Assembly (NCBI GenBank): GCA_047617785.1
Contig: JBLGBK010000007.1
Coordinates: 1-47,501 of the forward strand
Source: Colwellia polaris
Lineage (GTDB): Archaea; Nanohalarchaeota; Nanosalinia; Nanosalinales; Nanosalinaceae
Reading direction: 5' to 3'
DNA length: 47,501 nucleotides
In this document: one piece after another, positions 20,281-40,200 of the stretch
How positions within the stretch are numbered: position 1 is the stretch's first letter
Layout: every line of letters starts with the position of its first letter
Made by a program: the position numbers and the translations under genes
The notes under the pieces: model-generated
Told to the model about the DNA's origin: nothing
The model's database searches: none
The model's input: only the letters and a program-made list of their open reading frames with translations

Positions 20281-20933
20281 TGACTGAGATAAAGAAATAC
20301 CGTTACGGCGCTGCAATAGGCCTTACGATGCTTATATTTCTCCTAGGTGTTTTTGCAAGTAACTTGGCTGATGATAAAAGACAGTCTGACCTTCAGGATA
20401 CCTTGCGAGATGACAGTACAGATATTCAGAGCAAGCAGATATTAATGAGATATCTTGAAGGCGAAGAATCATGCGAACTCCGACAGGAAGGGTTAAATCA
20501 GATAGTTGAAGGTTATAATAATAGATTAGAGAGAGTACAGTCTTATGAAGAGAAAAGCTTTTTCCAAGAAACTGAATTTCGAAGTCTCAGACGCAGCTAT
20601 GTTCTTTCCGGTATAGAGTACTGGATGTTTGCTGAAGAAACTGATGAAAGATGTGACAGCTACAATACTAATACGATTCTTTTCTTCACGGAAGAACAAT
20701 GTGAATTATGTGACAAACAGGGTGAAACACTTTCCGATATTAAACGTCTATATGGAGATGAGGTGCTTGTTTTCTCGGTATATACTGATTTAGATGATAG
20801 TATGATTAATCTTCTCCGAGAGCAATATGATATTTCGAAACCCCCGGCGCTTGTAATAAACCAGAATAAGACTTTGGAAGGTGTTCATACACGTGAAAAT
20901 ATTACACAGCATCTAGAGATGAGCGAGGATTAG
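20280..20933 (+). CDS. Membrane-anchored thioredoxin-fold protein (CxxC)
   Basis: N-terminal TM helix, ILFFTEEQCELCDKQG, cis-Pro-like KPPALVIN; GTG start. Confidence 0.7.
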   Translation: MTEIKKYRYGAAIGLTMLIFLLGVFASNLADDKRQSDLQDTLRDDSTDIQSKQILMRYLEGEESCELRQEGLNQIVEGYNNRLERVQSYEEKSFFQETEFRSLRRSYVLSGIEYWMFAEETDERCDSYNTNTILFFTEEQCELCDKQGETLSDIKRLYGDEVLVFSVYTDLDDSMINLLREQYDISKPPALVINQNKTLEGVHTRENITQHLEMSED

Positions 20934-20939
20934 TGATCA

Positions 20940-24164: not shown

Positions 24165-24584
24165 ATGGATCTAAAACAGAAAATCCAGGAAGTAGAATAC
24201 GAATACACTCTGGACCAGAACGAGCTCGGAAAAATACTGGCAATAGTATCTCTCACAATTACCCTGTTCTCTGTATACTCGATAATGAGTCTTCAACCAG
24301 CAATGGAAGAAGCACAGACTGCTGAAGATAGGCTAAGCCAACTTGATGAAGTAATAAACTCGCAACAGTTCAACCAAAGCCTAAACGCGATGGAAGACCT
24401 TCAAACCACGTCCGTAGGGGAGGACATAGATTATGCATTGCAAACCTTCCAGGGTATGCAGACCACGGTTAACGACCAACAGAAGATATACGAAAACCTG
24501 GAGAACGCAAATACTCGCTACCAGTGGCTCTTCCTGATCGGCCTACTGGGTCTTGTATCGGGTGTATCGATCAGATATGTATAA
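24165..24584 (+). CDS. Two-TM protein with a helical external loop
   Basis: Hydrophobic helices near both ends; overlaps the next start. Confidence 0.7.
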   Translation: MDLKQKIQEVEYEYTLDQNELGKILAIVSLTITLFSVYSIMSLQPAMEEAQTAEDRLSQLDEVINSQQFNQSLNAMEDLQTTSVGEDIDYALQTFQGMQTTVNDQQKIYENLENANTRYQWLFLIGLLGLVSGVSIRYV

Positions 24585-26370
24585 GAAAACCCTTCTATTC
24601 TTCTTCACGGTTTTTCTGATCATTTCAGCTGCAGCAGAATCAGAACTAACTTTACAAACCAAAAATTCAGAAGGACAAACTGTAGACACACTATTCCAAG
24701 TAAGCAACAGCTCAGGGATAGTAGCCGAATCAGAAAACAGCCTCCAGACCAACCTAACGACAGATAATACTTACAAAGTCAAACAGATAATTAAAAATGG
24801 GGAGACAAACGTAACGCTCTACGACCTGAATATAACGCAAGATCTCTCTCCAAGAATAAGGTATACGAACAGAACTGAAAAAACACCTTACCTGGAAAGA
24901 CCAGAGAAAATATATGCTTTTGACGGCTCGGATCTTGATTACAGTAACGCAGAAATCGCTTATACCAGAAATAATGCGCCGGACAATATTCTAAACTGCC
25001 AAGATTACCTGTTCGACACAAATTCATGCAGCGACTGGAGCATAAACTCATCAACCGACTACAGCATAGATCAACAGGAAGGTATTTTCAGCTATAACGT
25101 AACAGGCTTCTCAGCATACACAGCAGGAGATACAGCACCAAGACTGAACGTAACAAATATTCGGGTATACAACGTAACCGGTCTGTCAAGCACAGATCAG
25201 AAGTACGAGGGCGCAAAGATAGAGGAAGGTTTGAACAAGACTTTCCAGACCGAACAGAAAGATGAAAGCGCATCATTCCGATTCACTTTCTCTATAGAGA
25301 ATACAGGCACTGAAGACTGGAGCCTAGCCTCTGCTGATACATTAAAGCATTCAGGAATTGATACAGGCTGGACGGTAGACGATATATGGTACAATATAGA
25401 TCAAGAATACACGGGAGGAAGCTTTTCCTCCGGACAGGTTACCTGGGATACTGAACAGGGTCTACTGGCTAACGGAAGCGCGATGAATGCAAGCTACGTA
25501 ACGGATACATCTCTCCAAGACACACAGACCTATAATCAAAATTTCAAAGTCCAAGATAGCTCTACAAATGCAGAAGACACCGACCTACATATACTTGAAG
25601 CCATAAAATACGGTCGACTATCAGCTGAGATCGTAACTCCTCCAAACAATACGCTCCTAACGCAAGATAAGATCTTCAATATGACGGCCAACTTGACATG
25701 CTCTAACGGGGACTGTGGTGATGTAGAATCTCAGCCGCGTTACAATACTACCGATGGCCAGTCAGTTCTTCCAGGTTCAGGAGGAACGCCATTCGCACTT
25801 CAGGAATCCGCAACCTCCTCATGCACACTTTCTTCAAGTGAAGAATGTACAGTTGAATGGCGAGTCAACGCCACAGGAGCAATGGATACATACCATAAAC
25901 TGGACGCAAATGTTTACAGTCTCAGTTATCCCGAGATTCCGGAGAACAGCTCTGAGCGTAACAAGGTGGAGATATCGATTCCTATAGATTTCAGCCTTGG
26001 CTGGGATACCATAGACTTTGGAGCTCTCAATCCAGGTTCAGAAAATAGATCTGCAGAGGGGAATCAAAACGAAGAGTACAATATAACAGTAAGTGAGGAT
26101 AGCAGACCTATAGACAATCTATGGGTGAAAGGAGAAGATCTGACTTCCACAGAGAACACCAACTACAGTATCGGCATCAGCAACGTTTCATATAGTCTAG
26201 AAAACGATATATCAACAGAAGAATCTTTGAATAAGACATATCAGCACGTGGTATCTGATTTGAGTCCGGGAGATATACTTACTACTTTTTATTGGATTGA
26301 TGTACCGTATGGAATGACTGAAGGCGGCTACAACGGCACAATAACCTTCAAGGCGAACGTAACGGAGTGA
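24577..26370 (+). CDS. Secreted multidomain beta-rich glycoprotein with a C-terminal pilin-like domain (candidate tip/minor subunit)
   Basis: Signal peptide from ATG 24577, many NxS/T sequons, no C-terminal TM; ends IDFGALNPG...IDVPYGMTEGGYNGTITF. Confidence 0.75.
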   Translation: MYKKTLLFFFTVFLIISAAAESELTLQTKNSEGQTVDTLFQVSNSSGIVAESENSLQTNLTTDNTYKVKQIIKNGETNVTLYDLNITQDLSPRIRYTNRTEKTPYLERPEKIYAFDGSDLDYSNAEIAYTRNNAPDNILNCQDYLFDTNSCSDWSINSSTDYSIDQQEGIFSYNVTGFSAYTAGDTAPRLNVTNIRVYNVTGLSSTDQKYEGAKIEEGLNKTFQTEQKDESASFRFTFSIENTGTEDWSLASADTLKHSGIDTGWTVDDIWYNIDQEYTGGSFSSGQVTWDTEQGLLANGSAMNASYVTDTSLQDTQTYNQNFKVQDSSTNAEDTDLHILEAIKYGRLSAEIVTPPNNTLLTQDKIFNMTANLTCSNGDCGDVESQPRYNTTDGQSVLPGSGGTPFALQESATSSCTLSSSEECTVEWRVNATGAMDTYHKLDANVYSLSYPEIPENSSERNKVEISIPIDFSLGWDTIDFGALNPGSENRSAEGNQNEEYNITVSEDSRPIDNLWVKGEDLTSTENTNYSIGISNVSYSLENDISTEESLNKTYQHVVSDLSPGDILTTFYWIDVPYGMTEGGYNGTITFKANVTE

Positions 26371-26377
26371 AAAAATC

Positions 26378-27076
26378 ATGGATAAAAAAACATTTCTACT
26401 CGTATCGGCACTTCTTCTAGCTCCTTTATCCTCGGCAACTGTATTGATTGAACCTCCTGAAACAGAAGTGAACATTAACGGTCTTGAGACGAGTTTTGAC
26501 ATCGGGTTTGTTAACACGGGCGAAAAGCTGAATCTAAGCCTTGATTCACAGCCGCAGACAGATATACAGGTCGATCACTCTCAAGATATTGTTTTAGATT
26601 CCTCAGAGATAACTTCGCAACCCGAGGGCAGCAACTGGTACTATCTAGGAGAAGGAGATTATGCAAAGATACAGTACATAACTGTAGATACATCTATACC
26701 CCGAGATACAGGTACGAGAAGACATAATTTCGATTTATCAATTTCTCGGGAGTATAAGACTTCCAGATCAAGACCAAACGTTGAACAGGTTCAGGAATTT
26801 AACTTCGAGATTTTCTCAACGTCGGACTTGATTAACACTGGCTTTGAATCTCCTGAGGAATCAAACCCGGAAGAAGTCCGAGATCAGAGGGAACAGAATT
26901 CCACAGAAACTAATCAACAGGAAACACGGTCACCAGATAGTACTGTTGATGACGGCTCCAACACCTCTAGTACCGAGGAGGACACAGCAGCTAGTGGTAT
27001 TGACGGCGTTACTATTTTACTCGTGTCAGGTCTATTACTAACTGTGGGATGGCTACTCAAGGAGGTAATGCTGTGA
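26378..27076 (+). CDS. Single-pass surface protein (Ig-like domain, S/T/E linker, C-terminal TM)
   Basis: Signal peptide, FVNTG beta pattern, low-complexity linker, terminal hydrophobic helix. Confidence 0.75.
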   Translation: MDKKTFLLVSALLLAPLSSATVLIEPPETEVNINGLETSFDIGFVNTGEKLNLSLDSQPQTDIQVDHSQDIVLDSSEITSQPEGSNWYYLGEGDYAKIQYITVDTSIPRDTGTRRHNFDLSISREYKTSRSRPNVEQVQEFNFEIFSTSDLINTGFESPEESNPEEVRDQREQNSTETNQQETRSPDSTVDDGSNTSSTEEDTAASGIDGVTILLVSGLLLTVGWLLKEVML

Positions 27077-29232
27077 GAAAGAAAATAGCTCTAATGGCTC
27101 TTACAGCGCTTATAATACCCTCTGCACTTGCTTCATACCAGGTAACGGAAGTCACCGGCGATGAAGAGATAGCTGCCGGTGATGCGCTCAACTTCAAATT
27201 AAATACTACAGAAGAAGCAAACTATACTGCCGATCTTATAGACAGCAGCGGCGACGTAGTTTTCTCCAACAGCGAACTTCCATTCCTGAAAAATCAATCA
27301 GTTCAGAACGAAACACATTACATATATGGCTTCAACTACACTCTGAGCGAAGACGCCCGTGTAGGTAGCTGGAAATCATCGGCCTACAACGGATTTTCAC
27401 AAGTCAGCGAATATCGGTTTGAGGTGGTTGCTCAAGAACTAAGAATAGTAGAGACCGAATCATTCCCCTTCTTCAAGAATACGGATGATAATGTAATAAT
27501 CCAAACTAATGTAACGAACGCCGAGGAAGAAGTAGATAGCATATCTCTAACAGTTTCAAATACTTCAATTCAAGACTCAGAGATGCAGAAGGTACAAAGC
27601 ACAGACGCTATAGATACATATCAGTACAATACAGGAGAACTAGGCCAGGGAAGCTACAGTTATGACGTGAACTTACAAGGAAGCGAGGGAACGCAAAAAT
27701 CCGTCTCAAAAAACTTTGAAGTATACTCCAGCAACAGAGACGCGGATCATTCAGATATCAATGTAGGTATAGCCAGCCTCTGTGGAACCTCAGTTACACA
27801 GTTCAGACCACCTGGTGGAGGAATCCTACCTACCGGAAGAGAAGGATCTTTCCTACTAAGCTTCACAAACAACGCCAGCTCGACTTCCAACGTAACTGCA
27901 AGCCTCAACGTCACCTTTCAGAACGAAACAGAATGGAGTCCTGAAGACGGTCTTGAGGAGATAGGAAACCAGACAAACAAAACTTATGAGGCCATGAATG
28001 AGACAGATCTAACTCCCGCTAGCTCATTTTCCGCAGCTCGTACTTTTCCAAAGACTAATCAGACAGGTTACTACTTGGGTAGGCTTAAAGTCAATACAGA
28101 ATGCCGTATAACTGATGGAGCTATTCAGGATCCTATAGTCTATGGTACGCAGACAGCCAATACGACCGATTACGTCAATTTCCGAGTGCTAGTAGCTGGA
28201 GGAGATACAGGCGGAAGTGGAGAGCCAATAGAAGAACCTATTCCGAGAGACGCTAACCAGACAGGGGAAGAATCAAACGAAACTGTGGAAGGAGATAACG
28301 ATAATCCGGGGCAAACGCCGGTACCTGAGCCTGAACCGGTACCTGAGCCTGTACCTGACCCTATACCGGCGTTAAGCCTTAATATTGAAGCGGTGAACAG
28401 CAGTGTTTCCACGCCGAGAGGAGGATTTCAAGAAGTAGAACTAAGGCTAGAAAATCTTGCTAACGCATCTATAGAGAACCTAACCATAAGTCCTCAAATC
28501 AGCAATCTACCTGGTGATTGGGCATCTCAACAGGCTTCTGTATCAGAATTAAGCCCTAATGAAACCGCTAAAAGATCAATATTCCTTAATCCTTCCCAAA
28601 ATGTGCGGCCAGGTACGTACAGAGTAAGTATTTACGGTGGAAACGGCGAAAGACTTCTGGATGTTGAGCGAATAGACTTTACTGTATTTGAAAATACTAC
28701 GGAGTCCAGTATACGTATCTCGGAGGCGCCAGAAGTCGTCAGGATAAGCAGCGGTGAATCACAGACAATACCTTTACTTGTCGAAAACCTCGGGGAGGAG
28801 GCGGTAGAGAACTCTACATTGACAGTTCAGAACTTGGAGGACTGTGGTGAAGCCTCAGGAAGCTACAGCACAAGCATACAACCGAACTCTTCAGAATCTA
28901 TCAGTCTAAACATCACTTCTGTATCTGAACTACGCGAGTGTGATGCAACAATCATCGTTTCGACGCCTGAAGGATCTTACTCATTCGCTGATATGCGTGT
29001 AGAGGTTGTGCCTGATGAAGGTTTTGTACCTCCTGAACTCAGGTTTCCGATCTTTGCTACGGCATGGACGGTACTACTTATCCTTTACTCAGTTGTTATG
29101 ACTCGCTACAACCTGAACTCGCTGCGCTTAAAGATCCCATACCTAGTCTTGATTGTTGTAGAAGCAGTGATATTCCTGTACATAGCAACAGAGTTCTACG
29201 GAATAATACCACCGGAACTATTACCTTTCTAG
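27073..29232 (+). CDS. Large membrane-anchored multi-Ig (CARDB/NEW3-like) surface protein
   Basis: GTG start after GGAGG; signal peptide; LENLAN/VENLG and RPGTY Ig patterns; Pro-rich hinge; 2 C-terminal TM helices. Confidence 0.8.
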   Translation: MRKKIALMALTALIIPSALASYQVTEVTGDEEIAAGDALNFKLNTTEEANYTADLIDSSGDVVFSNSELPFLKNQSVQNETHYIYGFNYTLSEDARVGSWKSSAYNGFSQVSEYRFEVVAQELRIVETESFPFFKNTDDNVIIQTNVTNAEEEVDSISLTVSNTSIQDSEMQKVQSTDAIDTYQYNTGELGQGSYSYDVNLQGSEGTQKSVSKNFEVYSSNRDADHSDINVGIASLCGTSVTQFRPPGGGILPTGREGSFLLSFTNNASSTSNVTASLNVTFQNETEWSPEDGLEEIGNQTNKTYEAMNETDLTPASSFSAARTFPKTNQTGYYLGRLKVNTECRITDGAIQDPIVYGTQTANTTDYVNFRVLVAGGDTGGSGEPIEEPIPRDANQTGEESNETVEGDNDNPGQTPVPEPEPVPEPVPDPIPALSLNIEAVNSSVSTPRGGFQEVELRLENLANASIENLTISPQISNLPGDWASQQASVSELSPNETAKRSIFLNPSQNVRPGTYRVSIYGGNGERLLDVERIDFTVFENTTESSIRISEAPEVVRISSGESQTIPLLVENLGEEAVENSTLTVQNLEDCGEASGSYSTSIQPNSSESISLNITSVSELRECDATIIVSTPEGSYSFADMRVEVVPDEGFVPPELRFPIFATAWTVLLILYSVVMTRYNLNSLRLKIPYLVLIVVEAVIFLYIATEFYGIIPPELLPF
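28318..28368 (+). repeat. Coding tandem repeat for the PVPEPEPVPEPVPDPIP hinge
   Basis: CCGGTACCTGAGCCTG at 28318 and 28336, plus a degenerate third unit. Confidence 0.8.
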
Positions 29233-30669
29233 GCTTTTAACTGCTTCTTTACAGTTATCGATAAATTCATCTCTTTCAATATCTATTTTCTGGGTGTACT
29301 GCTGCTTGTTCAGCTTATTGAAAGAAGAAGCAATATTTTCCAGGCTTTCAGTATCTTCAGGTATTCTTTCAGCTAGTTCACTATATGTAAGCTCTTTTTT
29401 AATACCTAGCTCTCTTTCAAGATAGCCTTTCATTATATGAGCGGTTTTTACAACTGCCTCTTCACGATCCAGCTCCCGGTACTCTGAAAGAACATCCTCG
29501 AGCTTTTTCTCATCTAGATCCTGACTGGCCTCCTCTCCCTCTTCCTCATCGCTTTCAATCCGGGACTTCAGTTTATCCTTCATATCTGACAGTTTGTTGG
29601 AAGAGTCTTCTTCCTCTTCTTCGTCTTCTCCTTTTCCAGCTCCCATAAGCATCTGTAGATCTTCTTCAGCTTCTTCCTTTATCTCTTCCTGAGACTTCTC
29701 ATCTTCATCATCGCTTGTCTCTGTTATCTCAGATGTTTCCGCTTCTTCATCACTTTGATCCCGAAGTTCGCTGTTTATCTTCTTCAAATCCTCAGTGCTC
29801 GCTTCTCTAAGCCCCTCTTCATCCATACCTTCTGACTTGAGAAAGCTGATTATCTCGTCTCGTTCCTCCTTCTCATCTCTTATCTTCTTTAGTTCATTCA
29901 GAGATATATTCTGTAAATCCGAATCTGAGAAATCTCCGTCCAGAGATGCAGCCACCTCTCTTTTCTCCTTAAGATCTTCGCTAATATCATCTTCTTTGTT
30001 TTCAGCATCTTCATCTTCATCATTCTCTTCCTGAGACTTTTCCTCACTGGTTTCATCTGTCTCTTCATTATCTGTTTCGTTATCCTCTTCTGCGGGAGGT
30101 TCTGTCTGCTCACTGTGACTCTGTAGCCGGTTGATATCTTTTTCCAGCTCTTCTATATTCTCTTCAGCTTCCTCCATGTCTTTTTCCAGCTCTTCCCTAT
30201 TGATAGTACGTTTTATAAGAGAGATAGCCTCTTCTCTGTCGTTGATCTTTCTTTCTGCTTCCAGAAGCTTCTTCAAACCTTCTTTCTTAGGATGATGCTT
30301 CTCCAAAAAATCTTCCATTTCTGATACGCTACCTGCCATCAGATCAATAATATCTTCGCTATCCAGTTTATCGAAGCCAGAATTTGTATAATCGAGATCC
30401 TCGATATCCTGAACTCTTTTTAATGCCTTCTCTAGATCTTCTACATCTTTTTCTGCAGCGCTTAATTCAGTGGAAACCTTTGAACGCTTGATTTCTCTTT
30501 CAAAAAGTTTAACCACTTCTTCTCTGTCCTGACTTCCTTCTTCTGCGCCTTTCAGTTCTTCAAGTTCTTTATCTGAGAAATCTCTGCTTTTAACTTCGTC
30601 CTCTATATTTTCTGCGGACTGGTTCAGCAATGAAACCGCTTCTGTAATATCAAGTTTTTCGTTGCTCAT
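29221..30669 (-). CDS. Very acidic helical/coiled-coil protein with internal repeats; last gene of the MoxR operon
   Basis: Duplicated helical units; C-terminal KGYLERELGIKKELTYSEL domain reminiscent of DUF4129/Bat-operon accessory domains. Confidence 0.7.
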   Translation of the reverse strand: MSNEKLDITEAVSLLNQSAENIEDEVKSRDFSDKELEELKGAEEGSQDREEVVKLFEREIKRSKVSTELSAAEKDVEDLEKALKRVQDIEDLDYTNSGFDKLDSEDIIDLMAGSVSEMEDFLEKHHPKKEGLKKLLEAERKINDREEAISLIKRTINREELEKDMEEAEENIEELEKDINRLQSHSEQTEPPAEEDNETDNEETDETSEEKSQEENDEDEDAENKEDDISEDLKEKREVAASLDGDFSDSDLQNISLNELKKIRDEKEERDEIISFLKSEGMDEEGLREASTEDLKKINSELRDQSDEEAETSEITETSDDEDEKSQEEIKEEAEEDLQMLMGAGKGEDEEEEEDSSNKLSDMKDKLKSRIESDEEEGEEASQDLDEKKLEDVLSEYRELDREEAVVKTAHIMKGYLERELGIKKELTYSELAERIPEDTESLENIASSFNKLNKQQYTQKIDIERDEFIDNCKEAVKSLER

Positions 30670-30695
30670 ACAGTTTACTTATTCTCCCCCCGGTA

Positions 30696-31643
30696 TTAAG
30701 GTATTACCTCGACCCCGGTACTCTTCAGAAGCCATTCTATCAACAGGAGTACACAGCCCGCCAAGATAAAGAAGTTTGAAAGATTTGTTCTCACATCTTC
30801 TTGCTCTATACCTACAAATTCTGGATCTACTTTGGTGCTCTCTGTTACTAGAATAGATTCTCCTCCAGTCTGGTTAGAAAGCCGATTAAGCTCTTCTATA
30901 TCCAGATTGTCGAAACCAGCTCTTGTAGCGTTATTACCTTCTATAATGCCGTATTCATCCTGTTCCTCGCTTGTACCTAGGCCGATAGTGTAAACAGATA
31001 TGTTTGACTCCTGAGCATAACGGATTGATTTATTTATAGAGCTACCTACGTTGTTTGCGCCGTCGGTAAGTAGTATAACCTTTTTATCTCCTTCTCTGCT
31101 GTCGAGTAATGAACCGGAGCTTATAATTGCGTCGCCAATAGCTGTGCCAGCAGTTTCACCGATTGTAATATTTTCAATAACTCTTCTTTTCTGTTCAAGG
31201 TCCTGCGAAATCTCTGACTCTGTCTGAACGCTACCGGAATACGAAATAATGCCAAGAGAGGTTTCATTGGTCATATCGTCGATAACTCCCTGGCTGATCT
31301 GCTTGGCTGCATCGAAACGCGTCGGCTCTATATCTGTAGTAAACATTGAGGACGAAGAATCAAGCGCTATAACATAGTTTGCATCCGCCACCATATCCTC
31401 CTGCACAAGCTGTGGGCCAGAAATACCGGCTATCAGAGAGGTGACGGCAAGAAGTTTCACTACTGTAAGAATATTGCTTGAACGGATGAACTTGCCGCCA
31501 GCAACTTTCTGAAGAGTATCATAGTTTCCGAAAGTCATTGCACGAGCCTTTTTTGACTGGCGAGCGTAGATAGTTACAGCAATAATTAAACCAAGTATTA
31601 AACCGAGTAATCCTGCGTACTGGTTGGAAAAAACTACGTCCAT
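30696..31643 (-). CDS. BatA-like membrane vWA domain protein
   Basis: N-terminal double TM, MIDAS DSSSS, PTRF, GTAIGDA, LLTDG, C-terminal TM LLLIEW. Confidence 0.9.
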   Translation of the reverse strand: MDVVFSNQYAGLLGLILGLIIAVTIYARQSKKARAMTFGNYDTLQKVAGGKFIRSSNILTVVKLLAVTSLIAGISGPQLVQEDMVADANYVIALDSSSSMFTTDIEPTRFDAAKQISQGVIDDMTNETSLGIISYSGSVQTESEISQDLEQKRRVIENITIGETAGTAIGDAIISSGSLLDSREGDKKVILLTDGANNVGSSINKSIRYAQESNISVYTIGLGTSEEQDEYGIIEGNNATRAGFDNLDIEELNRLSNQTGGESILVTESTKVDPEFVGIEQEDVRTNLSNFFILAGCVLLLIEWLLKSTGVEVIP

Positions 31644-31645
31644 CT

Positions 31646-32533
31646 CTACCAGCCACCCCCACTCTCATCGAAGAACTCTGCGAACGCAGCTGAGAACTCG
31701 TCTCGCGTATCTACTTTGATGAAGCTGCTTCCGCCACCTTCAATGTTCGCTTTGACCTCTTCTTCCTGCTTCTTGGCTTCTTTCTCGTACTTTTCTTTAA
31801 TCTTTGAAGTATTTACAACCATCTGTTGGTCTCCGTTAGGTGACTGGAAGCGCATATTACCATTCTCTGGAAGCTTGTAGTCTCTGAGGTCTTTCACCAT
31901 GATTGACATGACGTGGCGGAATTTCTGTGATGCGATTTGCATCTTTGCCTTCCATTCTCCTTTGGTATCTATGAAATCCGATATTATGAATATAGCTGTG
32001 TTCGCCTTGATCTGGCCAACAGTAGCCTCTAATGCTTCTTCTAGGTTGAATTTCCCACCGTAGTTCTCGAATTTGGTGACTTCATTCAGTACTTTTTGGT
32101 ATTGTCCCTGTCCTCCGTCAGGAGTCATAGTGATCTCGTCCTCGCCAAACATTCCGAATCCCGCGTTAATACCGTTGTCGATGGAGGCATATGCGAGTGC
32201 GGCGGCGACTACAGCTGCGTATTCTGACTTCAGTTTTTCAGAAGTACCGAACATCATTGAGTCGGAAGCATCTAGGACGATGAAAACATCCATGTCGTGT
32301 TCCTCTTCGTATTCTTTTACGTAGAGTTCCTGTGTAGAAGCTGAGTTTTTCCAGTCAATCCTTGATGCATCGTCGGTCACCATGTACTGCCGGAGGTCTG
32401 AGAACTCGATTCCGGAGGCCTGAAACTGTTCCTTGTACTTCATGGCGAACCGGAACATCTCCGATACTCGCTTCACCTGTGCATCCACCTTTGAGGTAAG
32501 GTCTTCCTCTCCGATGAATTCTTTCCTCTTCAT
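31646..32533 (-). CDS. DUF58 family protein
   Basis: GIEFSDLRQY..DDASRIDWK, VKEYEEE, LDASDSM.FG, IISDF. Confidence 0.93.
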   Translation of the reverse strand: MKRKEFIGEEDLTSKVDAQVKRVSEMFRFAMKYKEQFQASGIEFSDLRQYMVTDDASRIDWKNSASTQELYVKEYEEEHDMDVFIVLDASDSMMFGTSEKLKSEYAAVVAAALAYASIDNGINAGFGMFGEDEITMTPDGGQGQYQKVLNEVTKFENYGGKFNLEEALEATVGQIKANTAIFIISDFIDTKGEWKAKMQIASQKFRHVMSIMVKDLRDYKLPENGNMRFQSPNGDQQMVVNTSKIKEKYEKEAKKQEEEVKANIEGGGSSFIKVDTRDEFSAAFAEFFDESGGGW

Positions 32534-33544
32534 CTATCTCACCGGCACAGTCCCGACAATATCATCTATAATATCTTTAACATCAATACCCTGCGCCTCG
32601 CCCTCATAGTTTAACAGAATTCTGTGGATGAAAACAGGTTCAATAACTGCACGGATGTCCTCCGGTGTTACATAGTGGCGTTTGTTGTAAAGTGCGTGTG
32701 CACGAGCACCTAAAGCAAGGTTAATACTGGCTCTAGGTGTACAGCCCCATTCAATATACTTACCATAATCCAGTCCGTAATCTTCAGGATTCCTTGAACA
32801 GTCAACTAGGTCAACAATATATTCCTTGATTTCTTGGCTTACCGTAACCTGCTTCGAAAACTCCTGAATATCTAATACATCCTGCTTAGAAACAACCGGG
32901 TGAACATCGAAGTCCTCATCATCCATGATATTGGCATTCATATCGATAATCTTCTGCTCATTAACCTTCTTCGGATAGTCAAGATATATCTTGAACAGGA
33001 AACGGTCGATCTGCGCCTCAGGAAGCGGATAAGTACCTCCCTGCTCAGTAGGATTCTGAGTGGCCAGTGTAAAGAACGGTTCAGGTAGATGGAACGTCTC
33101 ATCACCGATCGATACTTTGTGCTCCTGCATAGCTTCAAGCATAGCACTCTGAACCTTTGGGGGTGCACGGTTAATTTCATCTGCGAGAATGAAGTTTGCG
33201 AAGATTGGTCCTTTCTCAACGTAAAATCCTTTGTCTTCGTTGTATGCTTCTACTCCGACAATATCTGAAGGTAGTAGGTCTGGTGTGAACTGGACTCTGT
33301 GAAATTCTGTTCCCTCAACAACTCGTCCTAATTGTTCTACAAGTAAAGATTTACCAAGTCCGGGAACTCCTTCCAAGAGAACGTTTCCTCCAGCTACGAC
33401 AGTCAATAGTACTTTGTTAATGACATCTTCCTGTCCGATGTAGCCTTTCTGAATCTCTTTCTCCATAGTTCGGATCATCTCACCGAACTTATCGGCCTTC
33501 TCACTCATCTCCTCATCCGACAAATCTGCATACTTACTAACCAT
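32534..33544 (-). CDS. moxR: MoxR-family AAA+ ATPase
   Basis: LLEGVPGLGKS, QFTPDLLPSD, LADEINRAPPKVQSA, ATQNP.EQ.GTYPLPEAQIDRF; start set at 33544. Confidence 0.95.
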   Translation of the reverse strand: MVSKYADLSDEEMSEKADKFGEMIRTMEKEIQKGYIGQEDVINKVLLTVVAGGNVLLEGVPGLGKSLLVEQLGRVVEGTEFHRVQFTPDLLPSDIVGVEAYNEDKGFYVEKGPIFANFILADEINRAPPKVQSAMLEAMQEHKVSIGDETFHLPEPFFTLATQNPTEQGGTYPLPEAQIDRFLFKIYLDYPKKVNEQKIIDMNANIMDDEDFDVHPVVSKQDVLDIQEFSKQVTVSQEIKEYIVDLVDCSRNPEDYGLDYGKYIEWGCTPRASINLALGARAHALYNKRHYVTPEDIRAVIEPVFIHRILLNYEGEAQGIDVKDIIDDIVGTVPVR

Positions 33545-33655
33545 ACAAACAATAGATGTTCTGTCTCTGAATAAAAAGACTATCAACGTATGAATTCTAG
33601 GTTCTAGTTTAGTTGTTCAAGAAAAGAAAAAAGAGAAATAAATGAAGTTTAGGAT

Positions 33656-34795
33656 TCAGTAGTTTGTAACATCGTAATCTGATGTTACGTGGAAGGTAAG
33701 ATCTCCTGTCTGTACTGATCCCTGTGGTACTCCCTGTGGTACTTCGATTGCTGTATCAACGATGAACTGTTCTCCTGGGAGAAGCATGTCGTCAGCTGTT
33801 GCCGTACTTAGTAGGAACTGTGTCTGACTTCCTGCGCTGTCTCCACTGTCTGCTGCTGCAGCTGTTATATCTGGAACATCTCCAGCTCTAACGTTGTAAC
33901 GCGTTCTGATGAGATGTGGGTCTTCTCCTGAAGTTCCCATCTCACATCTTGTTAGAAGATCGTAGGTTCGAGTCACTGTTGATCCGTCTACTTCGAAGTC
34001 TAGACTTACTGCTGATTGTGTAAGTCCGTATTCTCCGTTTGTTGGCTCAAGCTGGTATGTTGAGTAGTCTCCGCTGTTGTCTGATGTGAAGTCTACTGTT
34101 CCAAAGCTGCTTGAGCTGTGAACGCTGTTTCCTATACGAAGTTCTGCGTTCTGTGAACCGTCACAGACGTCGTTTGATGAACCGGTTACGACTGTGTAGA
34201 AGTACCATTCGTCTCCTGCTCTGATTCTTCCTACGTAAGTGTCTGCTGCGGTATCTCCGCTTAGAGATTCACTTGGTGATGCTCTAATGTAGGATGGAAT
34301 CTGGTTCGTAGAGTTGGACCATGATGCTGAGAACTCGTGTCGGTTGACGTAGTGATAAACTTGATCGTCTCCGTTGATTCCTGATGGTGTAGCGTTGTTT
34401 GGCTTAACCTGTAGGAAGTTCGCAGCATTGTAGTTGTTAGGGTTTCCTGTACCGAATGGATCATTACTCATGTCGGTTGCTTCTACCCAAACTCTATCGA
34501 TGTACTCGGAACCGATGTTCTCAAGTGTGAATGAACCGAAGATATTGTCTCCTGTTGTTTCTTCAGTTACCTGTCCTCCAACTTCCAAACTTGGGAAGTT
34601 TAGAGAATTAGGCTTTACGTCGATAGCGGTAGTGCTTGCAATTCCTACATCTATTGATGAGCCTTCGCTTGTAGTGTTGTCATTATCACTACTGTTGATC
34701 TGGCTGTCTTGTTCAAGAGTTTGTGCGGCTCCTGAGAAGGTCATTCCTAGTACGAGCAGTGCGAGTACTGTGGTTGTTGCTAGTTGTTTTTTCAT
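33656..34795 (-). CDS. Secreted, probably abundant structural subunit (candidate major pilin/surface protein)
   Basis: Signal peptide, no C-terminal TM, perfect GGAGGTGA RBS, long leader, T-rich terminator; codon usage looks like the ribosomal protein genes by eye. Confidence 0.7.
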   Translation of the reverse strand: MKKQLATTTVLALLVLGMTFSGAAQTLEQDSQINSSDNDNTTSEGSSIDVGIASTTAIDVKPNSLNFPSLEVGGQVTEETTGDNIFGSFTLENIGSEYIDRVWVEATDMSNDPFGTGNPNNYNAANFLQVKPNNATPSGINGDDQVYHYVNRHEFSASWSNSTNQIPSYIRASPSESLSGDTAADTYVGRIRAGDEWYFYTVVTGSSNDVCDGSQNAELRIGNSVHSSSSFGTVDFTSDNSGDYSTYQLEPTNGEYGLTQSAVSLDFEVDGSTVTRTYDLLTRCEMGTSGEDPHLIRTRYNVRAGDVPDITAAAADSGDSAGSQTQFLLSTATADDMLLPGEQFIVDTAIEVPQGVPQGSVQTGDLTFHVTSDYDVTNY

Positions 34796-35133: not shown

Positions 35134-36246
35134 ATGAGAAAGCTAGTAATTGCGCTGTTACTGATAGGCATGATTTCAAGCGTTTCAGCACAATCAACAG
35201 GGGCTGCGCCTAGTTTACAGAGTTTAGGCGATGTTCAACCAGGCCAAACTGTTCAAGCTACTATTTATGTAACAGGAACTAGCTATGAAGAACCTTATGC
35301 TATTAAACCTGAAGCAGTTGAACCTTTGGCAAGCAAATTCCTCGATGCTTCTAGTTCTCCAATACCTGTACAAAGTTATTCGGAGGAATCTACTGTAGAA
35401 TGGGTATCTTTCGATCAAGAAACATATACTATCGATCCGACTAACTCCACTCCGTACGTACTTCCTAATGGAGCAGAAGTCAACGCTAACGGGGAGCTTA
35501 CATTAACAGTAAGAATTCCTAATGATGCAGAACCAGGATGGCACTCGGGAGCTGTGCAGCTAAACCCTCAAACAGGAGGAGGCACTGGGTTCGGAGCTTC
35601 TGCAAGAACAGTGTCTCAACCAACATTCGTATTTAATGTACAGACAGCGGAAGAACCAGAAAGGCTGCTCGAAGTGGTAGATGCGAGAGGAATACGTACT
35701 GGTGAAAATACAGCCCGAATAGATATGAGAATAGCAAATAGAGGAACGGTCACAACCACTATAAGGAACTCAGATATCGATGTCCTCGACCGTATAAATA
35801 ATCAAAAGATTGGAGAGCTTTCTTTAGGCTTTCAGTCTTTGGAACCCGGACGCAGCCAAGTAGTATCTACAAGCTTTAATTCTGAGGCTATAAGCCAAGG
35901 AAGCTACGTTTTGAATGGTTCAATAGATTATAGTTCATCTAGGGCTTTCGCAGGACAACAAACTTTTGCTCTTTCAAGCCAGATTCAAGAAGATCCGGAA
36001 AGCCCAGATAGCTTCAATGACGAGAATAACAGCAATGCAGAAGGATCCGGAACGCCGATGTGGCTTGTAGGACTTTTCATACTCGTAATATCAGCAGTTA
36101 TGTACTCATTTGGATTTGACCTTTTCTGGATACTGGTAGCGGCTGGTTTCCTAGGTATCGCATTGTTCATAGTCTTGACGCCAGTTCCAATCTGGATGCT
36201 TATAGTACTTTTAACAACGCCGGTGATAATTCTATACTATGCTTGA
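35134..36246 (+). CDS. Two-Ig-domain membrane-anchored protein, DUF916/WxLIP-like
   Basis: Signal peptide; VQPGQT...EWVSF...TVRIPNDAEPGWHSGAV; second domain IANRGTV...LEPG...GSY; C-terminal TM bundle. Confidence 0.6.
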   Translation: MRKLVIALLLIGMISSVSAQSTGAAPSLQSLGDVQPGQTVQATIYVTGTSYEEPYAIKPEAVEPLASKFLDASSSPIPVQSYSEESTVEWVSFDQETYTIDPTNSTPYVLPNGAEVNANGELTLTVRIPNDAEPGWHSGAVQLNPQTGGGTGFGASARTVSQPTFVFNVQTAEEPERLLEVVDARGIRTGENTARIDMRIANRGTVTTTIRNSDIDVLDRINNQKIGELSLGFQSLEPGRSQVVSTSFNSEAISQGSYVLNGSIDYSSSRAFAGQQTFALSSQIQEDPESPDSFNDENNSNAEGSGTPMWLVGLFILVISAVMYSFGFDLFWILVAAGFLGIALFIVLTPVPIWMLIVLLTTPVIILYYA

Positions 36247-36736
36247 AGACGAAAAGATTAACTCCGACTGGGAATCAGACTTTCCTGTAGAACCAAAATA
36301 CATGCTGGTCGGAGCGGCCGCGCTACTAGCAGTAACGCTATTTGCATTACCTTTCGTCATGGATGCATACCTTCTAGAAAAGAAGCAAGCATCGTTTAAT
36401 ACTTCTGCAGAAGTAATACCAAACGGTTCTCCAGGTGTAAATACTGAAAATAACTCTCTTGACTTTGGCCGTATGATTGAAGACAAAATGAACTTCACAA
36501 GAAGTATTCCTGTTGAAACAGGCAGAGACACCTTAGTACTACTGGATATAAGCGGCAATATAACAGATCATCTTGATTACCAACGAATACATCGATTCAA
36601 CAACTCCAAGTCTATAGATATACGTATGATAGCCAACGAATCAGGCAATTATACTGGAACAATCAATGTAAACATTCAGGCAGCAAACAGGACAGGAGGT
36701 TCAGCATGGCTAGATATAAAGCAGGAATTCTACTAA
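36239..36736 (+). CDS. Membrane-anchored small pilin-like/Ig protein
   Basis: Uncleaved N-terminal TM; SLDFGRM and SGNYTGTINV motifs. Confidence 0.65.
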   Translation: MLEDEKINSDWESDFPVEPKYMLVGAAALLAVTLFALPFVMDAYLLEKKQASFNTSAEVIPNGSPGVNTENNSLDFGRMIEDKMNFTRSIPVETGRDTLVLLDISGNITDHLDYQRIHRFNNSKSIDIRMIANESGNYTGTINVNIQAANRTGGSAWLDIKQEFY

Positions 36737-37488
36737 CTTCACTTCTTTTCATTTCGGTTATACCAGCTTCAGCCTTCACAGTACAAGTTTCTATAGCTGA
36801 TATGACTTCTGCATCTGTTAAGGATGTTCAGTATCAGGAAAACGTGTCGACTGTTCAGAACATGAATGCTTCTATTGAGAATACAGGTTCTATTGGCTGT
36901 GGCTACAGACTTAAGGCAGACTACAGCTATGGCAATCAGAGCTTTGAACGGTACTCGGGAGAACATCAGCTTTGGCAGGGGGATTCAGATAGAGCCACGC
37001 TTCATCTTCTGGCTACAAACTATACCGGAACAGTTAGAGGCAACCTATCTGTCCAGTACTGTGGACAGGAAAAACAGGTAGAGAGATTCAACTTTACTAC
37101 AGAAAATGTTACGTTGCCAAATGCAACAGAAGTTAGAACTCTGAAAGCTGATGAAAAATCTGCAGAGATCAGGTCCTCACAATACAAAAGCGGACGACTT
37201 GTACCTATAGAAGCACCTTCTTACTGGAAAGCTTCTGCCGCTGAACTTGAGGAAGGCAAGGCAACGCTGGAGTACGAAGCACCGATTTTCGACCCAAGAG
37301 AAACCATAACCTATGCTTTGGTACAGAATCAGTCGGTTGAAGCAACAGTAGAAACAAGCTTGGAGGAAAACCCGACTCTTCTAAATCAGATTATGAATGC
37401 AAATCCAGCGCTTCTCTACATGGTAATCCTTTTACTCGCAGCGCTTAACGTCGCTCAAATACTTAGAACCCGCAGAAACAAGGATTAA
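36706..37488 (+). CDS. Single-pass surface protein (Ig-like, C-terminal TM and basic tail)
   Basis: Signal peptide, IENTGS, Cys pair, TM followed by RTRRNKD. Confidence 0.75.
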   Translation: MARYKAGILLTSLLFISVIPASAFTVQVSIADMTSASVKDVQYQENVSTVQNMNASIENTGSIGCGYRLKADYSYGNQSFERYSGEHQLWQGDSDRATLHLLATNYTGTVRGNLSVQYCGQEKQVERFNFTTENVTLPNATEVRTLKADEKSAEIRSSQYKSGRLVPIEAPSYWKASAAELEEGKATLEYEAPIFDPRETITYALVQNQSVEATVETSLEENPTLLNQIMNANPALLYMVILLLAALNVAQILRTRRNKD

Positions 37489-37524
37489 AGCTTTAAAGTA
37501 GTCAAGCACCAAATACATAACCAG

Positions 37525-40200
37525 ATGCCTAGCCATAACAAAAAGACAATACTGTTTCTAGCACTCATGTTTCTCACAGGTTTTGCAACAGCATCCTCAC
37601 ATGTAGATATGAGGGTTGCTCAAGAAGGTACAGGTTTTGTAGGCGGACAGCTTATCGAAGATAGTGATGGGCTGGAAACAACTGAATCGATGAAAGTTTC
37701 TCTATCTGTAAATAATACTTCAAAATATGATTTTTCTCAGGTACAAGCATCTGACTTTGAATTCGGTCAGGGCTTAAGCAATCCAGACATAGTTGATAGA
37801 GAAAAGGCAGAGTCAGCTAATACTACAGTATTCACATTAACTCCTTCCGTTGATTCATACGTTGAGGAAAGCATAGAATTAACATTCAACAAATCTGAGT
37901 TTGATAACGCAACTGTAACAGCGTCTTTCAATCCGCTTATCTACGAATGGAGCGCCTCCAAAGTTGGCGACACAAACCCTGGAAGAGACCTTAGCTATGA
38001 GCAAGTTGAAGATGGCGATTACCGTTTCTACCTGGATGTTGATCATATGGGAGATTCAAGTCTTCCTTCTTCTCCGCTCGATGATGAAAACTTCCGGTTA
38101 ACAATTCACGCGCTTAGAGATAAAAATGAGGACGGGTTTTCAGAAAGAGTTGATATCGATGAACTAGAGGACTTTGATGCAGATACCAACGAGTATGAGC
38201 GCCGAGAATGGTTAGAGCAATCACAGCCAGAGAGCGATTCAAATTACAACTACAAAGTTTCTCTGGATAACATGAATAGCTTGGACAGGCTTCCTGCTGG
38301 AAAATACATGTTTACAATGGAAGTGGCTTATGAAGCAGAATATGAGAGCCAGAGTCCAGTATATTTTGCAGTAGATGAGACTCGTGTAGATAAAAGCACA
38401 GAATTCTCAGGAGCGGTAAGGGATTCTACAGGAAGCGGAGTACGTACAGAGATGCTCTTGAACGGTAAAAAGAATACTAGAATCAATACTGGAGAGGACG
38501 GAACCTTTTCCACAACAATTGATCAAAGCAAGTTTGATTCAATTACGGCGGATTTCTATGATCGAGGTCAGGAATCGCCTGATTCCAGCGTAACACTTAA
38601 CGGTCCTGAAATATCTGAGAACTCAGATCTTGGCCTAGGAAGCTCAGCTATAAGATACCAGTACTGGAACAATCCTGACAACAGAATCGATGGATTGGAA
38701 TCGGTTAACATGATGGCGACAAAGTTCGCCTATCCTATTGACGGTGTGGACAGCCTCAGTATGGCATTCGATTCAGGCGAAGTAAATCTTGAGAAAATAC
38801 AGGTTTACAAGTGTAACTTCTGGAACTTTGACGGTGTAGAATGTATGGAGAACTGGGAAGAGGTTAGTGGTTCAAACGTTAACGTCAACTTCGCAGCTCT
38901 TAACGCAAATATTGAAGGCGTCAAACCGTACACCACTCCAACAGGCGAACCAATTCTAATGCATGCTTTCATCGTAGGTAAAAAATCTGATCTTCAGCTT
39001 CAAGAGTCTATCAGTGTTGAGTCCACAGACTTGACTTACAACAGCGAACTAGGTGTTTCAGGAGTGCTTGTTGATGAAAGTGGTGACCGCGTTGAGGATG
39101 CTGTGGTTACTCTAGGCCTGAAGGATACTGACCAGGCGTGGAATGCTACTACTGATTCTACAGGAACTTTCCGTTTCAACGATAGAGTGAGCGCTGAGCC
39201 TGGTAACTATGTGATGACTCTGGAAGCAGAGAAATCTCCTTACAACCCATTCACTATGGAAAGTGATGCAACTCTGAATGTGGAGTACGAGAAGGGTATA
39301 GAGACTGAGGCTCCTGCTGATCAGACTATAAGACAGGGGGAAAACAGTCAAATACAGTTTGAAGTTACTAATACAGGTCAGACAGCTGTTGAGAATATAG
39401 AGGTCTCTACTGAAGGAGTGAAAAGTCAGTACATAAAGTCGGTTGATAGTCCCGAAAGCATAGCTAGTGGTGAGACAGAAGCAGTTACAATTACCTTGGC
39501 TCTATCTGATGACTACTGTAGTGATACATGCTATCCTGAACTGAATGCGGATGTTGAAGGTTCTGCTGAAGGCGAAAAAGTTACCGCTTCAGCTTTACTA
39601 ACTACAACTCTGGAAGTGGAGCAGGACCAAGATGAGGGCGGTTCTGGCCAAAAGGAAACAGAGAATCAGGGACAGCAGCAAGAACCGAATAATACTAACT
39701 CCTCGCAGCAACCTGAGAATGAAACAGACAGTATTTCAGGTGCGTTCACTGAAGCGCAAAGAATGACTGGCGAGTTTGTTGAGCAGCAGAGTGATCTAAA
39801 TATTGCTCTCGGTTTGATTATGATCTTCACTCTGATTCTGGCGGCTGCTGTCAAGAAGAAAAAGGATCAGGGAGATAACGGTAGAGGCGGAAGGATGAAT
39901 AATCGATCTCGTCCTAACATTTCAGGAGGATCAACATCTTCTGAGTCAAGGGTTCAGAAGCCGGATGTCAGCTCAAAGAACAGAGGGTCTGATGTCGCTT
40001 CCGAGGATGATAGCTCTATGGTAGAAGAAGAGTCAGAAGTCGAACAGGAAGATATGGAAGCTGATGAGGAGGATGTTGAAGAAGACGAAGAAGTTGAACG
40101 GGAAGAGGGTTCCGAGTCAGGACCTGAGGTATGCGATGTCTGTGGTGAGGAATTTGAGAATGCTACAGGAGTGAAGATTCACAGACAAGCAGTTCACTAA
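37525..40200 (+). CDS. Large single-pass surface protein with an acidic cytoplasmic tail ending in a C2H2 zinc finger
   Basis: Signal peptide; carboxypeptidase-regulatory-like repeats (TGEDGTF, TDSTGTF); CARDB-like VTNTG; TM followed by KKKK; CDVCGEEFENATGVKIHRQAVH. Confidence 0.82.
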   Translation: MPSHNKKTILFLALMFLTGFATASSHVDMRVAQEGTGFVGGQLIEDSDGLETTESMKVSLSVNNTSKYDFSQVQASDFEFGQGLSNPDIVDREKAESANTTVFTLTPSVDSYVEESIELTFNKSEFDNATVTASFNPLIYEWSASKVGDTNPGRDLSYEQVEDGDYRFYLDVDHMGDSSLPSSPLDDENFRLTIHALRDKNEDGFSERVDIDELEDFDADTNEYERREWLEQSQPESDSNYNYKVSLDNMNSLDRLPAGKYMFTMEVAYEAEYESQSPVYFAVDETRVDKSTEFSGAVRDSTGSGVRTEMLLNGKKNTRINTGEDGTFSTTIDQSKFDSITADFYDRGQESPDSSVTLNGPEISENSDLGLGSSAIRYQYWNNPDNRIDGLESVNMMATKFAYPIDGVDSLSMAFDSGEVNLEKIQVYKCNFWNFDGVECMENWEEVSGSNVNVNFAALNANIEGVKPYTTPTGEPILMHAFIVGKKSDLQLQESISVESTDLTYNSELGVSGVLVDESGDRVEDAVVTLGLKDTDQAWNATTDSTGTFRFNDRVSAEPGNYVMTLEAEKSPYNPFTMESDATLNVEYEKGIETEAPADQTIRQGENSQIQFEVTNTGQTAVENIEVSTEGVKSQYIKSVDSPESIASGETEAVTITLALSDDYCSDTCYPELNADVEGSAEGEKVTASALLTTTLEVEQDQDEGGSGQKETENQGQQQEPNNTNSSQQPENETDSISGAFTEAQRMTGEFVEQQSDLNIALGLIMIFTLILAAAVKKKKDQGDNGRGGRMNNRSRPNISGGSTSSESRVQKPDVSSKNRGSDVASEDDSSMVEEESEVEQEDMEADEEDVEEDEEVEREEGSESGPEVCDVCGEEFENATGVKIHRQAVH

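Follow-up and report, generated by a model that had tools for sequence, protein, structure and literature searches.

How are two secreted proteins that carry no membrane anchor, one of 597 and one of 379 residues, related to each other, and what does their relationship say about the way in which such proteins are held on a nanohaloarchaeal cell? Both are encoded in one gene cluster on contig JBLGBK010000007.1 (GenBank assembly GCA_047617785.1, filed under Colwellia polaris; GTDB lineage Nanohalarchaeota, Nanosalinaceae), of which positions 1 to 47,501 were analysed; this whole stretch of 47,501 nucleotides is hereafter called the window. A first-pass annotation, made from the sequence alone, had proposed that the C-terminal domain (CTD) of the larger protein is a homologue of the core of the smaller one. 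We find that this homology is real and that the CTD is a lineage-specific, unannotated immunoglobulin-like (Ig-like) module that ends signal-peptide proteins without an anchor. The larger protein was listed as an open reading frame (ORF) of 605 aa that begins at a TTG codon (24553-26370, plus strand). Because its homologues begin at the ATG at 24577, the start was placed there, giving the 597-aa form (P0032) to which residue numbers refer unless noted otherwise.

The proposed homology had been based on three collinear pairs of short strings, and all of the quoted strings were found in the two proteins at their places (Table 1). Pairwise BLASTP among the 597-aa protein, the 379-aa protein and the product of ORF 36239, a third protein brought into the original comparison, gave nothing significant (best E-value (E) 1.2-1.9); single sequences therefore cannot separate a match from chance. 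Family alignments of 31 relatives of the 379-aa protein (A1) and 14 relatives of the 597-aa protein (A2) were compared using hhalign. The whole alignments yielded one match (probability 59%, E 9.1e-5), between residues 456-524 of the larger and 42-111 of the smaller protein, which corresponds to the first two motif pairs. When the alignments were cut into independent slices, with nothing joined, the N-terminal half of the CTD matched the N-terminal core segment of the 379-aa protein (probability 93%, E 2.7e-7, 68 columns) and the C-terminal half matched the C-terminal core segment (probability 64%, E 6.4e-5, 47 columns), with four control pairs, crossed or involving the insert, at E 0.13-0.37. 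Deeper profiles, made from 27 CTDs and 170 members of the 379-aa family, gave 93.3% (E 2.8e-7) for the N-terminal and 95.5% (E 1.5e-8) for the C-terminal pair, and the crossed controls stayed at E 0.0039 or above. Against 11 other families or segments of the same cluster, among them the Ig-like domains of neighbouring proteins and the first 455 residues of the 597-aa family, the best control reached E 0.0034; two high scores in that control table are trivial, the slices in question overlapping by 11 and 16 residues. An all-against-all hhalign comparison with shallow alignments taken from the locus only did not lift the link between the 597-aa and 379-aa proteins above 20% probability, so recovering it needs deeper alignments or slices.

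Searches with profile hidden Markov models (HMMs) were then considered within the genome itself. Using HMMER on the 1,782 ORFs of the genome, the best non-self match of the CTD HMM was the 379-aa ORF (E 2.3e-5; next 0.33), and an HMM of the C-terminal core segment ranked the 605-aa ORF at the top (E 0.01; next 0.22); within their own genome, each of the two proteins is the best hit of the other. The deeper CTD HMM recovered 63 of the 170 members of the 379-aa family at E <= 1e-3 and none of the 1,780 other ORFs. Additionally, columns that are invariant in each family coincide (597-aa/379-aa numbering): Ser509/96, Trp516/103, Gly487/73, Val-Pro-x-Gly 576-579/352-355 and Gly587/364. Between the matching halves, about 21 residues of the larger protein correspond to about 211 of the smaller, in agreement with the insertion of some 200 residues that the first-pass annotation had assigned to the 379-aa protein. 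Because the two independent and collinear profile matches, the HMMER matches and the coinciding invariant columns agree, and because the controls fail, we conclude that the CTD and the split core of the 379-aa protein are homologous.

The AlphaFold model of the 379-aa protein has a mean predicted local distance difference test (pLDDT) score of 73.6 and a predicted template modelling score of 0.74. Structural alignments of this model to small Ig-like domains span residues ~55 to ~376, yet align only 88-104 residues, a combination of long span and few aligned residues which indicates that the N- and C-terminal segments form one sandwich from which residues ~112-330 are looped out. In the model, then, the core of the 379-aa protein is a single Ig-like sandwich interrupted by a beta-rich insert of ~215 aa. 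Five strands are modelled in both proteins and lie within the profile alignment, and all of them pair in register (597-aa/379-aa residues 462-467/46-54, 501-504/88-93, 512-519/98-106, 567-574/343-352 and 589-594/364-373).

The insert had been pictured as an exposed variable domain, a view that its conservation contradicts. Its mean top-residue frequency is 0.58 (core segments, 0.62 and 0.67), and of the 74 columns in the three segments that are conserved at 90% or more, 47 lie in the insert, two Cys among them. Its fold, modelled with pLDDT mostly 80-92, was judged only within the whole 379-aa model, and no new fold is claimed; no structural match of the insert exceeded a Z-score (Z) of 5.9, with flavivirus E domain I and lipocalin-like and fHbp-type barrels at Z 4.5 or below. 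An ESM Atlas search with the insert gave no feature match (the Atlas's own model has pLDDT 0.45, and TM was at most 0.42). For the 379-aa model as a whole, Foldseek against the PDB returned no match at E <= 0.001 (GH16 rows had TM ~0.1), a second structural search with VIA-align gave nothing above Z 5.2, and the A1 profile found PDB sequences at a best E of 0.013, over a short stretch. A complex prediction for two copies of residues 40-379 scored 0.02 (mark 0.42), which says nothing either way.

Neither the 597-aa nor the 379-aa protein belongs to a Pfam or NCBIfam family. The 379-like family comprises 288 cluster representatives at E <= 1e-3 among 1.84 billion, and none of 58 members scanned had a Pfam family above cut-off for the 379-like part. 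One protein, P0087, consists of a signal peptide, a LamG domain and, at the extreme C-terminus, a 379-like module including the insert, and the CTD HMM matches it in two collinear pieces; through this fusion, both forms of the module are seen to occur as C-terminal ends of lectin-type passengers.

We therefore examined the position of the CTD within its own proteins. The 597-aa protein is modelled (pLDDT 80.5) as a string of beta-sandwich domains, of which residues 187-344 resemble Gram-positive pilin/adhesin domains (Z 9-11) and residues 346-468 resemble CARDB/MG/FN3 domains (Z 10-11.6) in structure comparisons; its sole hydrophobic segment is N-terminal. Many of its orthologues lack the first ~175 residues, and in several genomes only the last ~270 residues match, within open frames of 1,104 to 6,292 aa. 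The CTD was found at the extreme C-terminus in all 14 homologues, and in 7 of 7 further ORFs from four fetched genome regions, including frames of 2,413+, 2,561, 2,874 and 6,292 aa, the match spanned the full CTD HMM and ran to the final residue of the frame (E 1e-20 to 1e-53; the 597-aa protein of the window matches at E 9e-78). Three of these four large frames carry Laminin_G_3, CBM_3, PKD, Big_1, Big_3_5 and DUF2341 domains (the 6,292-aa frame was not scanned), and the passengers upstream of the CTD range from ~300 to more than 6,000 residues. The layout of a passenger followed by a conserved C-terminal domain, which the first-pass annotation had read from the 597-aa protein, thus extends to varied adhesin-type passengers. 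With ~30 invariant columns retained, we define here a new nanohaloarchaeal CTD family, a domain of ~140-155 aa at the extreme C-terminus of signal-peptide proteins without an anchor.

The last residues of the CTD have a feature of their own. The end of the domain (window positions 26338-26367) reads as a near-invariant [FI]-K-[AV]-N-x-T plus one residue, which in 26 of 27 distinct CTD copies places an N-x-T sequon three residues before the C-terminus; the 379-aa family has no such ending. Sequons of the N-x-S/T type are frequent in the cluster in general; the 605-aa ORF has 25 and the 727-aa protein 26.

Synteny over the 16 kb of the cluster (24165-40200) extends to eight related loci, within the limits of their contigs; the cluster falls into three parts. 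The first, on the plus strand, encodes a 139-aa membrane hairpin, the 597-aa protein and anchored proteins of 232 and 727 aa; the second, on the minus strand, encodes the 379-aa protein, MoxR, a DUF58 protein, a BatA-like VWA protein and an acidic 482-aa protein; the third, again on the plus strand, encodes anchored proteins of 370, 165, 260 and 891 aa. Judged by its Pfam matches, which are clear for MoxR, DUF58 and VWA, the middle part contains a Bat-type MoxR operon (AAA_3, DUF58 and a membrane VWA protein). In all eight related loci MoxR is immediately preceded by the 379-aa gene, and the 482-aa and 139-aa genes are syntenic in seven and five of them, respectively. The cluster encodes 11 proteins that are extracytoplasmic or lie in the membrane, and all of these except the 597-aa and 379-aa proteins have a hydrophobic segment besides the N-terminal signal peptide. 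The VWA domain of the BatA-like protein is predicted to face outside, because the loop between its first two hydrophobic segments contains 7 Lys/Arg (positive-inside rule) and because the Borrelia BatA-type protein BB0173 has its VWFA domain exposed outside the cytoplasmic membrane, to the periplasm (PMC5700661, in the part of the article covered).

Nearly all homologues of the 597-aa and 379-aa proteins belong to Nanohaloarchaeota, including 'Candidatus Nanohaloarchaea archaeon' and 'Ca. Nanohalovita haloferacivicina' (P0016 and P0041). To describe their distribution, 70 genomes of the phylum were surveyed, the counts coming from related genomes that are not independent. The CTD was found in 43 genomes by the A2 search, the BatA-like protein in 39 and the 379-like family in 33. 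A CTD gene is also present in 32 of the 33 genomes with a 379-like gene, and a BatA-like gene in 36 of the 43 with a CTD; in 29 of these 36 the two lie on the same contig within 7 kb of one another, and in the other 7 they are on different contigs. Among the 27 genomes without a CTD, only 3 gave a BatA-like match, and a weak one (E 1e-26 to 1e-33). No 379-like match was found in 11 of the 43 CTD genomes, including G021 (96% complete), G023 (92%) and G031 (93%), in which the CTD gene still adjoins the VWA operon; G026 keeps only a 108-aa fragment of the 379-like gene, with a stop.

Two 379-like genes stand in tandem in five genomes (G013 C61:472-2688; G028 C1:41555-43657; G036 C13:14095-16164; G037 C113:10947-13005; G069 C2:39494-41572), and the second copy often matches only profile positions ~3-340.

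What might the shared module do? Its homology in the two proteins, its strict C-terminal position, the lack of an anchor and the tight linkage to the MoxR/DUF58/BatA operon together suggest that the CTD is a docking or retention module. It would hold anchorless surface proteins non-covalently on the cell envelope, and the 379-aa protein would occupy the same site through the same module, its insert being the part that does the work. As receptors, the membrane-anchored proteins of the cluster would be likeliest, namely the BatA-like protein, with its VWA domain predicted to point outward, and the transmembrane-anchored Ig-like proteins; MoxR and DUF58 may act from the cytoplasmic side. We hold the docking role itself to be a serious possibility, just short of an even chance, and we regard the explanation as a whole, in which docking is added to the homology and linkage described above, as evenly balanced. 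A bolder form, an integrin-like display of archaeal adhesins, would have the shared Ig-like module plug into the BatA-like VWA domain and MoxR plus DUF58 switch the receptor, so that this tiny symbiont could mount, swap or shed giant LamG/PKD adhesins, together with the insert-bearing 379-aa protein, where it contacts its haloarchaeal host; this we consider a long shot.

Several observations weigh against docking. The CTD may be no more than a structural domain passed on by duplication. It was modelled only within the whole 597-aa protein, where pLDDT falls to 32-38 over residues 471-500, the stretch with the first motif. The cytoplasm is the predicted location of MoxR, DUF58 and the acidic 482-aa protein, which leaves their connection to secreted proteins unexplained. 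Co-occurrence across genomes is confounded by shared ancestry, nearly all positives belonging to family f1, and 7 CTD genomes gave no BatA-like match, though they are 71-94% complete.

Plain paralogy is the alternative that survives best, although we think it unlikely. Here the CTD would be one more Ig-like spacer, and the 379-aa protein a duplicate that has taken up a domain insertion, with no partner common to the two. The cluster is indeed full of Ig-like domains, and the C-terminal hairpin of the module resembles NPCBM_assoc/DUF11-type domains, which appear below threshold in 3 of the 58 family members scanned. A mere spacer accounts poorly for a domain that keeps the extreme C-terminal position in every one of the 14 homologues and 7 further ORFs while passengers vary or lose their first ~175 residues, nor does it account for the invariant columns and the nearly universal terminal N-x-T described above; moreover, no similarity was detected between the CTD and the remaining Ig-like domains, whether of its own proteins or of the cluster.

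Decidedly improbable, in our judgement, is the pilus proposed by the first-pass annotation, in which the 379-aa protein would polymerise via its Ig-like core and the 597-aa protein and its giant relatives would join as tip or accessory adhesins via a 'pilin' domain. The 379-aa core does align with FimA (4dwh_D; Z 5.6, root-mean-square deviation (rmsd) 3.2, 106 residues), with the Pyrobaculum bundling pilin (7ueg_A; Z 5.5, rmsd 3.4, 118 residues), with the TasA fibre (8aur_A; Z 5.4, rmsd 4.7, 150 residues) and with CfaE/CfaB (Z 4.5-4.7), as well as with FimI and CsuE complexes (Z 5.3 and 4.7, both under Z 8). An extra strand (x-V-x-I-x) before the first strand of the sandwich is kept in both families and could be a donor strand, and tandem duplicates like those in the five genomes above are usual for pilin genes. 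These pilin scores (Z 4.5-5.6) nevertheless fall below those of ASH/PapD-like/MSP domains (6-6.9), and all are under Z 8, the level that the tool calls common. The sandwich also appears complete in both models, each having its own last strand (379-aa residues 364-373, pLDDT ~76-82; 597-aa residues 589-594, ~60). No chaperone, usher, sortase or TasA/camelysin family was found among the 22 window ORFs scanned with Pfam and NCBIfam, and a Pfam match to TasA/camelysin, Peptidase_M73, was likewise not obtained. Finally, the gene for the supposed pilus subunit was not found in 11 of the 43 CTD genomes, and its family is present in only 33 of the 70 genomes of the phylum surveyed. Taken together, these findings do not uphold a pilin or fimbrial identity.

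That the two proteins merely share, by chance, short beta-strand motifs of a kind found in many Ig-like domains is scarcely credible: chance would fit the BLASTP result and the occurrence of 'L-x-F-G' and 'P-G-x...V-P-x-G' in many beta-sandwich families (the ORF 36239 match being of that kind), yet two independent collinear profile matches strengthen with deeper profiles, crossed and other-family controls fail, the proteins are reciprocal best hits, and HMMER finds 63/170 family members with no false positive among the 1,780 other ORFs.

The docking reading would be of interest for the biology of these organisms. Nanohaloarchaea live attached to haloarchaeal hosts, and secreted LamG/PKD and giant surface proteins are named as likely mediators of host interaction in the covered parts of PMC10266531, PMC11291902 and PMC7443923, where other genes are described as S-layer glycoproteins; attachment itself is treated in PMC10266531 and PMC7443923, which in those parts give no account of how anchorless surface proteins stay on the cell. 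The same parts of the three articles, supplements not covered, mention no conserved C-terminal domain and no link to MoxR, and a literature search found no paper joining nanohaloarchaea with MoxR, BatA or DUF58. The finding is an unannotated, lineage-specific Ig-like C-terminal module together with a stand-alone paralogue that bears an insert, both in a conserved envelope cluster around a Bat-type MoxR operon. A shared C-terminal module would give a concrete handle on how anchorless surface proteins stay on the cell and predicts which proteins are displayed together. The CTD/379-like module defines a family that can be searched for, as the representatives of its 379-like form illustrate, and the long-unexplained Bat-type MoxR/VWA operons gain candidate client proteins in one lineage.

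We also considered the 379-aa protein as a possible S-layer protein and set this aside, as its family was found in only 33/70 genomes and, in cultivated strains, the S-layer glycoprotein annotation is carried by other genes (PMC10266531, in the part covered). The positions of the genes and segments discussed are collected in Table 1.

Table 1. Genes, protein segments and quoted motifs of the cluster, with positions in the window.
Feature	Position	Strand	Remarks
Gene of secreted 597-aa protein	24577..26370	+	signal peptide, about four Ig-like passenger domains, CTD; no membrane anchor
CTD, residues 456-597 of 597-aa protein	25942..26367	+	profile homology to 379-aa core; ends FKANVTE, which holds an N-x-T sequon
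IDFGALNPG (597-aa protein)	26011-26037	+	
IDNLWVKGEDL (597-aa protein)	26110-26142	+	
LSPGDIL...GTITF (597-aa protein)	26260-26349	+	
Gene of secreted 379-aa protein	33656..34795	-	first gene of 379/MoxR/DUF58/VWA/482-aa transcription unit; no membrane anchor
N-terminal core segment of 379-aa protein, residues 45-111	34463..34663	-	homologous to first half of CTD
Inserted beta-rich domain of 379-aa protein, residues 112-330	33806..34462	-	conserved; two nearly invariant Cys (211, 284)
C-terminal core segment of 379-aa protein, residues 331-373	33677..33805	-	homologous to second half of CTD
LNFPSLEVG (379-aa protein)	34577-34603	-	
IDRVWVEATDM (379-aa protein)	34469-34501	-	
LLPGEQF...DLTF (379-aa protein)	33692-33784	-	
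MoxR-type AAA+ ATPase	32534..33586	-	Pfam AAA_3 E 3.2e-57, AAA_lid_2 E 5.4e-18
DUF58 protein, VWA-like	31646..32533	-	Pfam DUF58 E 1.6e-43; no hydrophobic segment, therefore presumably cytoplasmic
BatA-like membrane protein, VWA domain between hydrophobic segments	30696..31643	-	Pfam VWA E 9.9e-18; BatA N-terminal model 22 bits, under cut-off 25.9; hydrophobic segments 3-30, 56-77, 284-311; DSSSSM in VWA domain, which we take to be a D-x-S-x-S motif of the metal-ion-dependent adhesion site (MIDAS) type
482-aa protein, last operon gene	29221..30669	-	very acidic (34% D+E); no hydrophobic segment, no Pfam family
139-aa protein	24165..24584	+	two hydrophobic segments; directly upstream of 597-aa gene, overlapping it
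232-aa and 727-aa genes	26378..29232	+	signal peptides and C-terminal membrane anchors; downstream of 597-aa gene; NPCBM_assoc 23.2 bits, just under cut-off
Divergent operon of four membrane-anchored envelope proteins (370, 165, 260, 891 aa)	35134..40200	+	includes 165-aa ORF 36239-36736
ORF 36239-36736, 165 aa	36239-36736	+	third protein of the original comparison; membrane-anchored

For the third protein, the product of ORF 36239, the shared strings LDFG and GNYTGTI are present as reported, and membership in the family was not detected: profile comparisons gave a probability of at most 2.2% (E 0.02 or above), with only 12-13 columns around GNYTG aligning. Its only match in Pfam and NCBIfam was DUF4402, at E 0.026. 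The small domain of this ORF has a paralogue of its own in residues 552-656 of a 911-aa ORF (contig C5:4261-6996, minus strand; E 5.2e-9).

Other features of the cluster were observed in passing. The 891-aa protein (37525-40200, plus strand) continues past its membrane segment into an acidic tail of ~110 residues (~780-891), cytoplasmic by position, that ends in a zinc-finger-like motif, C-x2-C ... H-x4-H, unusual for a surface protein. By profile comparison, the 232-aa protein (26378-27076, plus strand) and the first half of the 370-aa protein (35134-36246, plus strand) look related (hhalign probability 82%, E 1.1e-5, 137 columns, in an alignment that starts at residue 1 and so includes the signal peptides). 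The stretch just upstream of the cluster (17657-22025, plus strand; 22382-23257, minus strand) encodes three glycosyltransferases, two of family GT2, of which one has a GtrA-type membrane domain, and one that is Alg9/PMT-like, followed by a TrmB/DUF7343-type regulator; the glycosyltransferases fit the many N-x-S/T sequons in the cluster proteins. A MinD/ParA-type ATPase gene at 40222-41004 (minus strand) closes the cluster and is syntenic in 4 of the 8 loci. At locus L001:3993-6791 (plus strand), the MoxR match falls within a 932-aa ORF, compared to the usual ~350 aa, which could be a fusion or a wrongly extended frame.

We compared the two proteins with known systems. In structure, the modelled split core of the 379-aa protein matches ASH/PapD-like/MSP domains best (CEP192, 6fvi_A; HYDIN-type, 7sqc/7n6g/9ijj; C. 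elegans MSP, 1grw_A), at Z 6.0-6.9, which is below 8, and rmsd 1.9-3.6 A, over 88-104 residues spread across model residues 55-378; 7sqc, 7n6g, 9ijj and 7ptb are also among the Foldseek matches of the 597-aa model. These domains differ in that no sequence relationship was found by Pfam, NCBIfam or PDB sequence matching, none has the 215-aa insert, and in eukaryotes they are modules of the cytoplasm or of cilia, in bacteria chaperones of the periplasm. CARDB, NPCBM_assoc (NEW3) and DUF11 domains have a similar C-terminal hairpin pattern (P-G-x ... V-P-x-G ... G-x-h-x-h), and occur widely in archaeal envelope proteins, of which the neighbouring 727-aa and 891-aa proteins are examples. The sub-threshold Pfam scores on the hairpin part were 22.1 and 16.7 bits for NPCBM_assoc (cut-off 24.4) and 19.4 bits for DUF11 (24.6), but none of the family members scores above a curated cut-off, hhalign comparisons with neighbouring proteins that contain such domains gave E 0.005 or above, and the window's 597-aa and 379-aa proteins have no match to these families in Pfam.

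The FimH/FimA, CfaE/CfaB, TasA and AbpA systems also join a passenger to a C-terminal domain that has its homologue in a small protein encoded by another gene, with weak structural resemblance (Z 4.5-5.6). They differ from the present case, in which the modelled sandwich is complete, there is no chaperone/usher or TasA signal in the window, and the small protein is dispensable in several lineages.

Among the C-terminal anchoring or sorting domains of bacterial surface proteins are the WxL, SLH (S-layer homology) and Ig-like type IX secretion system (T9SS) C-terminal domains, each a conserved module that ends varied and often giant adhesin-like passengers lacking a membrane anchor; Ig-like partner proteins that do have such an anchor are encoded at WxL loci as well. 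The nanohaloarchaeal CTD proteins have the same architecture and, if the CTD docks, would have a similar function. With the T9SS domain (Por secretion tail), the extreme C-terminal position and the Ig-like fold are shared, a likeness of architecture only, with no family match, and the WxLIP structure 9i1y_A is among the structural matches of the 379-aa model (Z 5.1). No Pfam or NCBIfam match to any of these domains was obtained, the receptor must differ in an archaeon that has neither peptidoglycan nor an outer membrane, and linkage to MoxR, DUF58 and BatA is not known from these systems.

The MoxR-DUF58-BatA operon itself has its counterpart in the bacterial Bat-type operons of Bacteroides, Leptospira and Borrelia (BB0170-0176), which contain a MoxR AAA_3 protein, a DUF58 protein and a membrane VWA protein with a BatA-like N-terminus, in the same order. 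To our knowledge, a link to secreted 379-like or CTD genes has not been described for bacterial Bat operons. In the window, by contrast, the operon starts with the secreted 379-aa gene and is flanked by genes for CTD-bearing adhesin-like and anchored Ig-like proteins.

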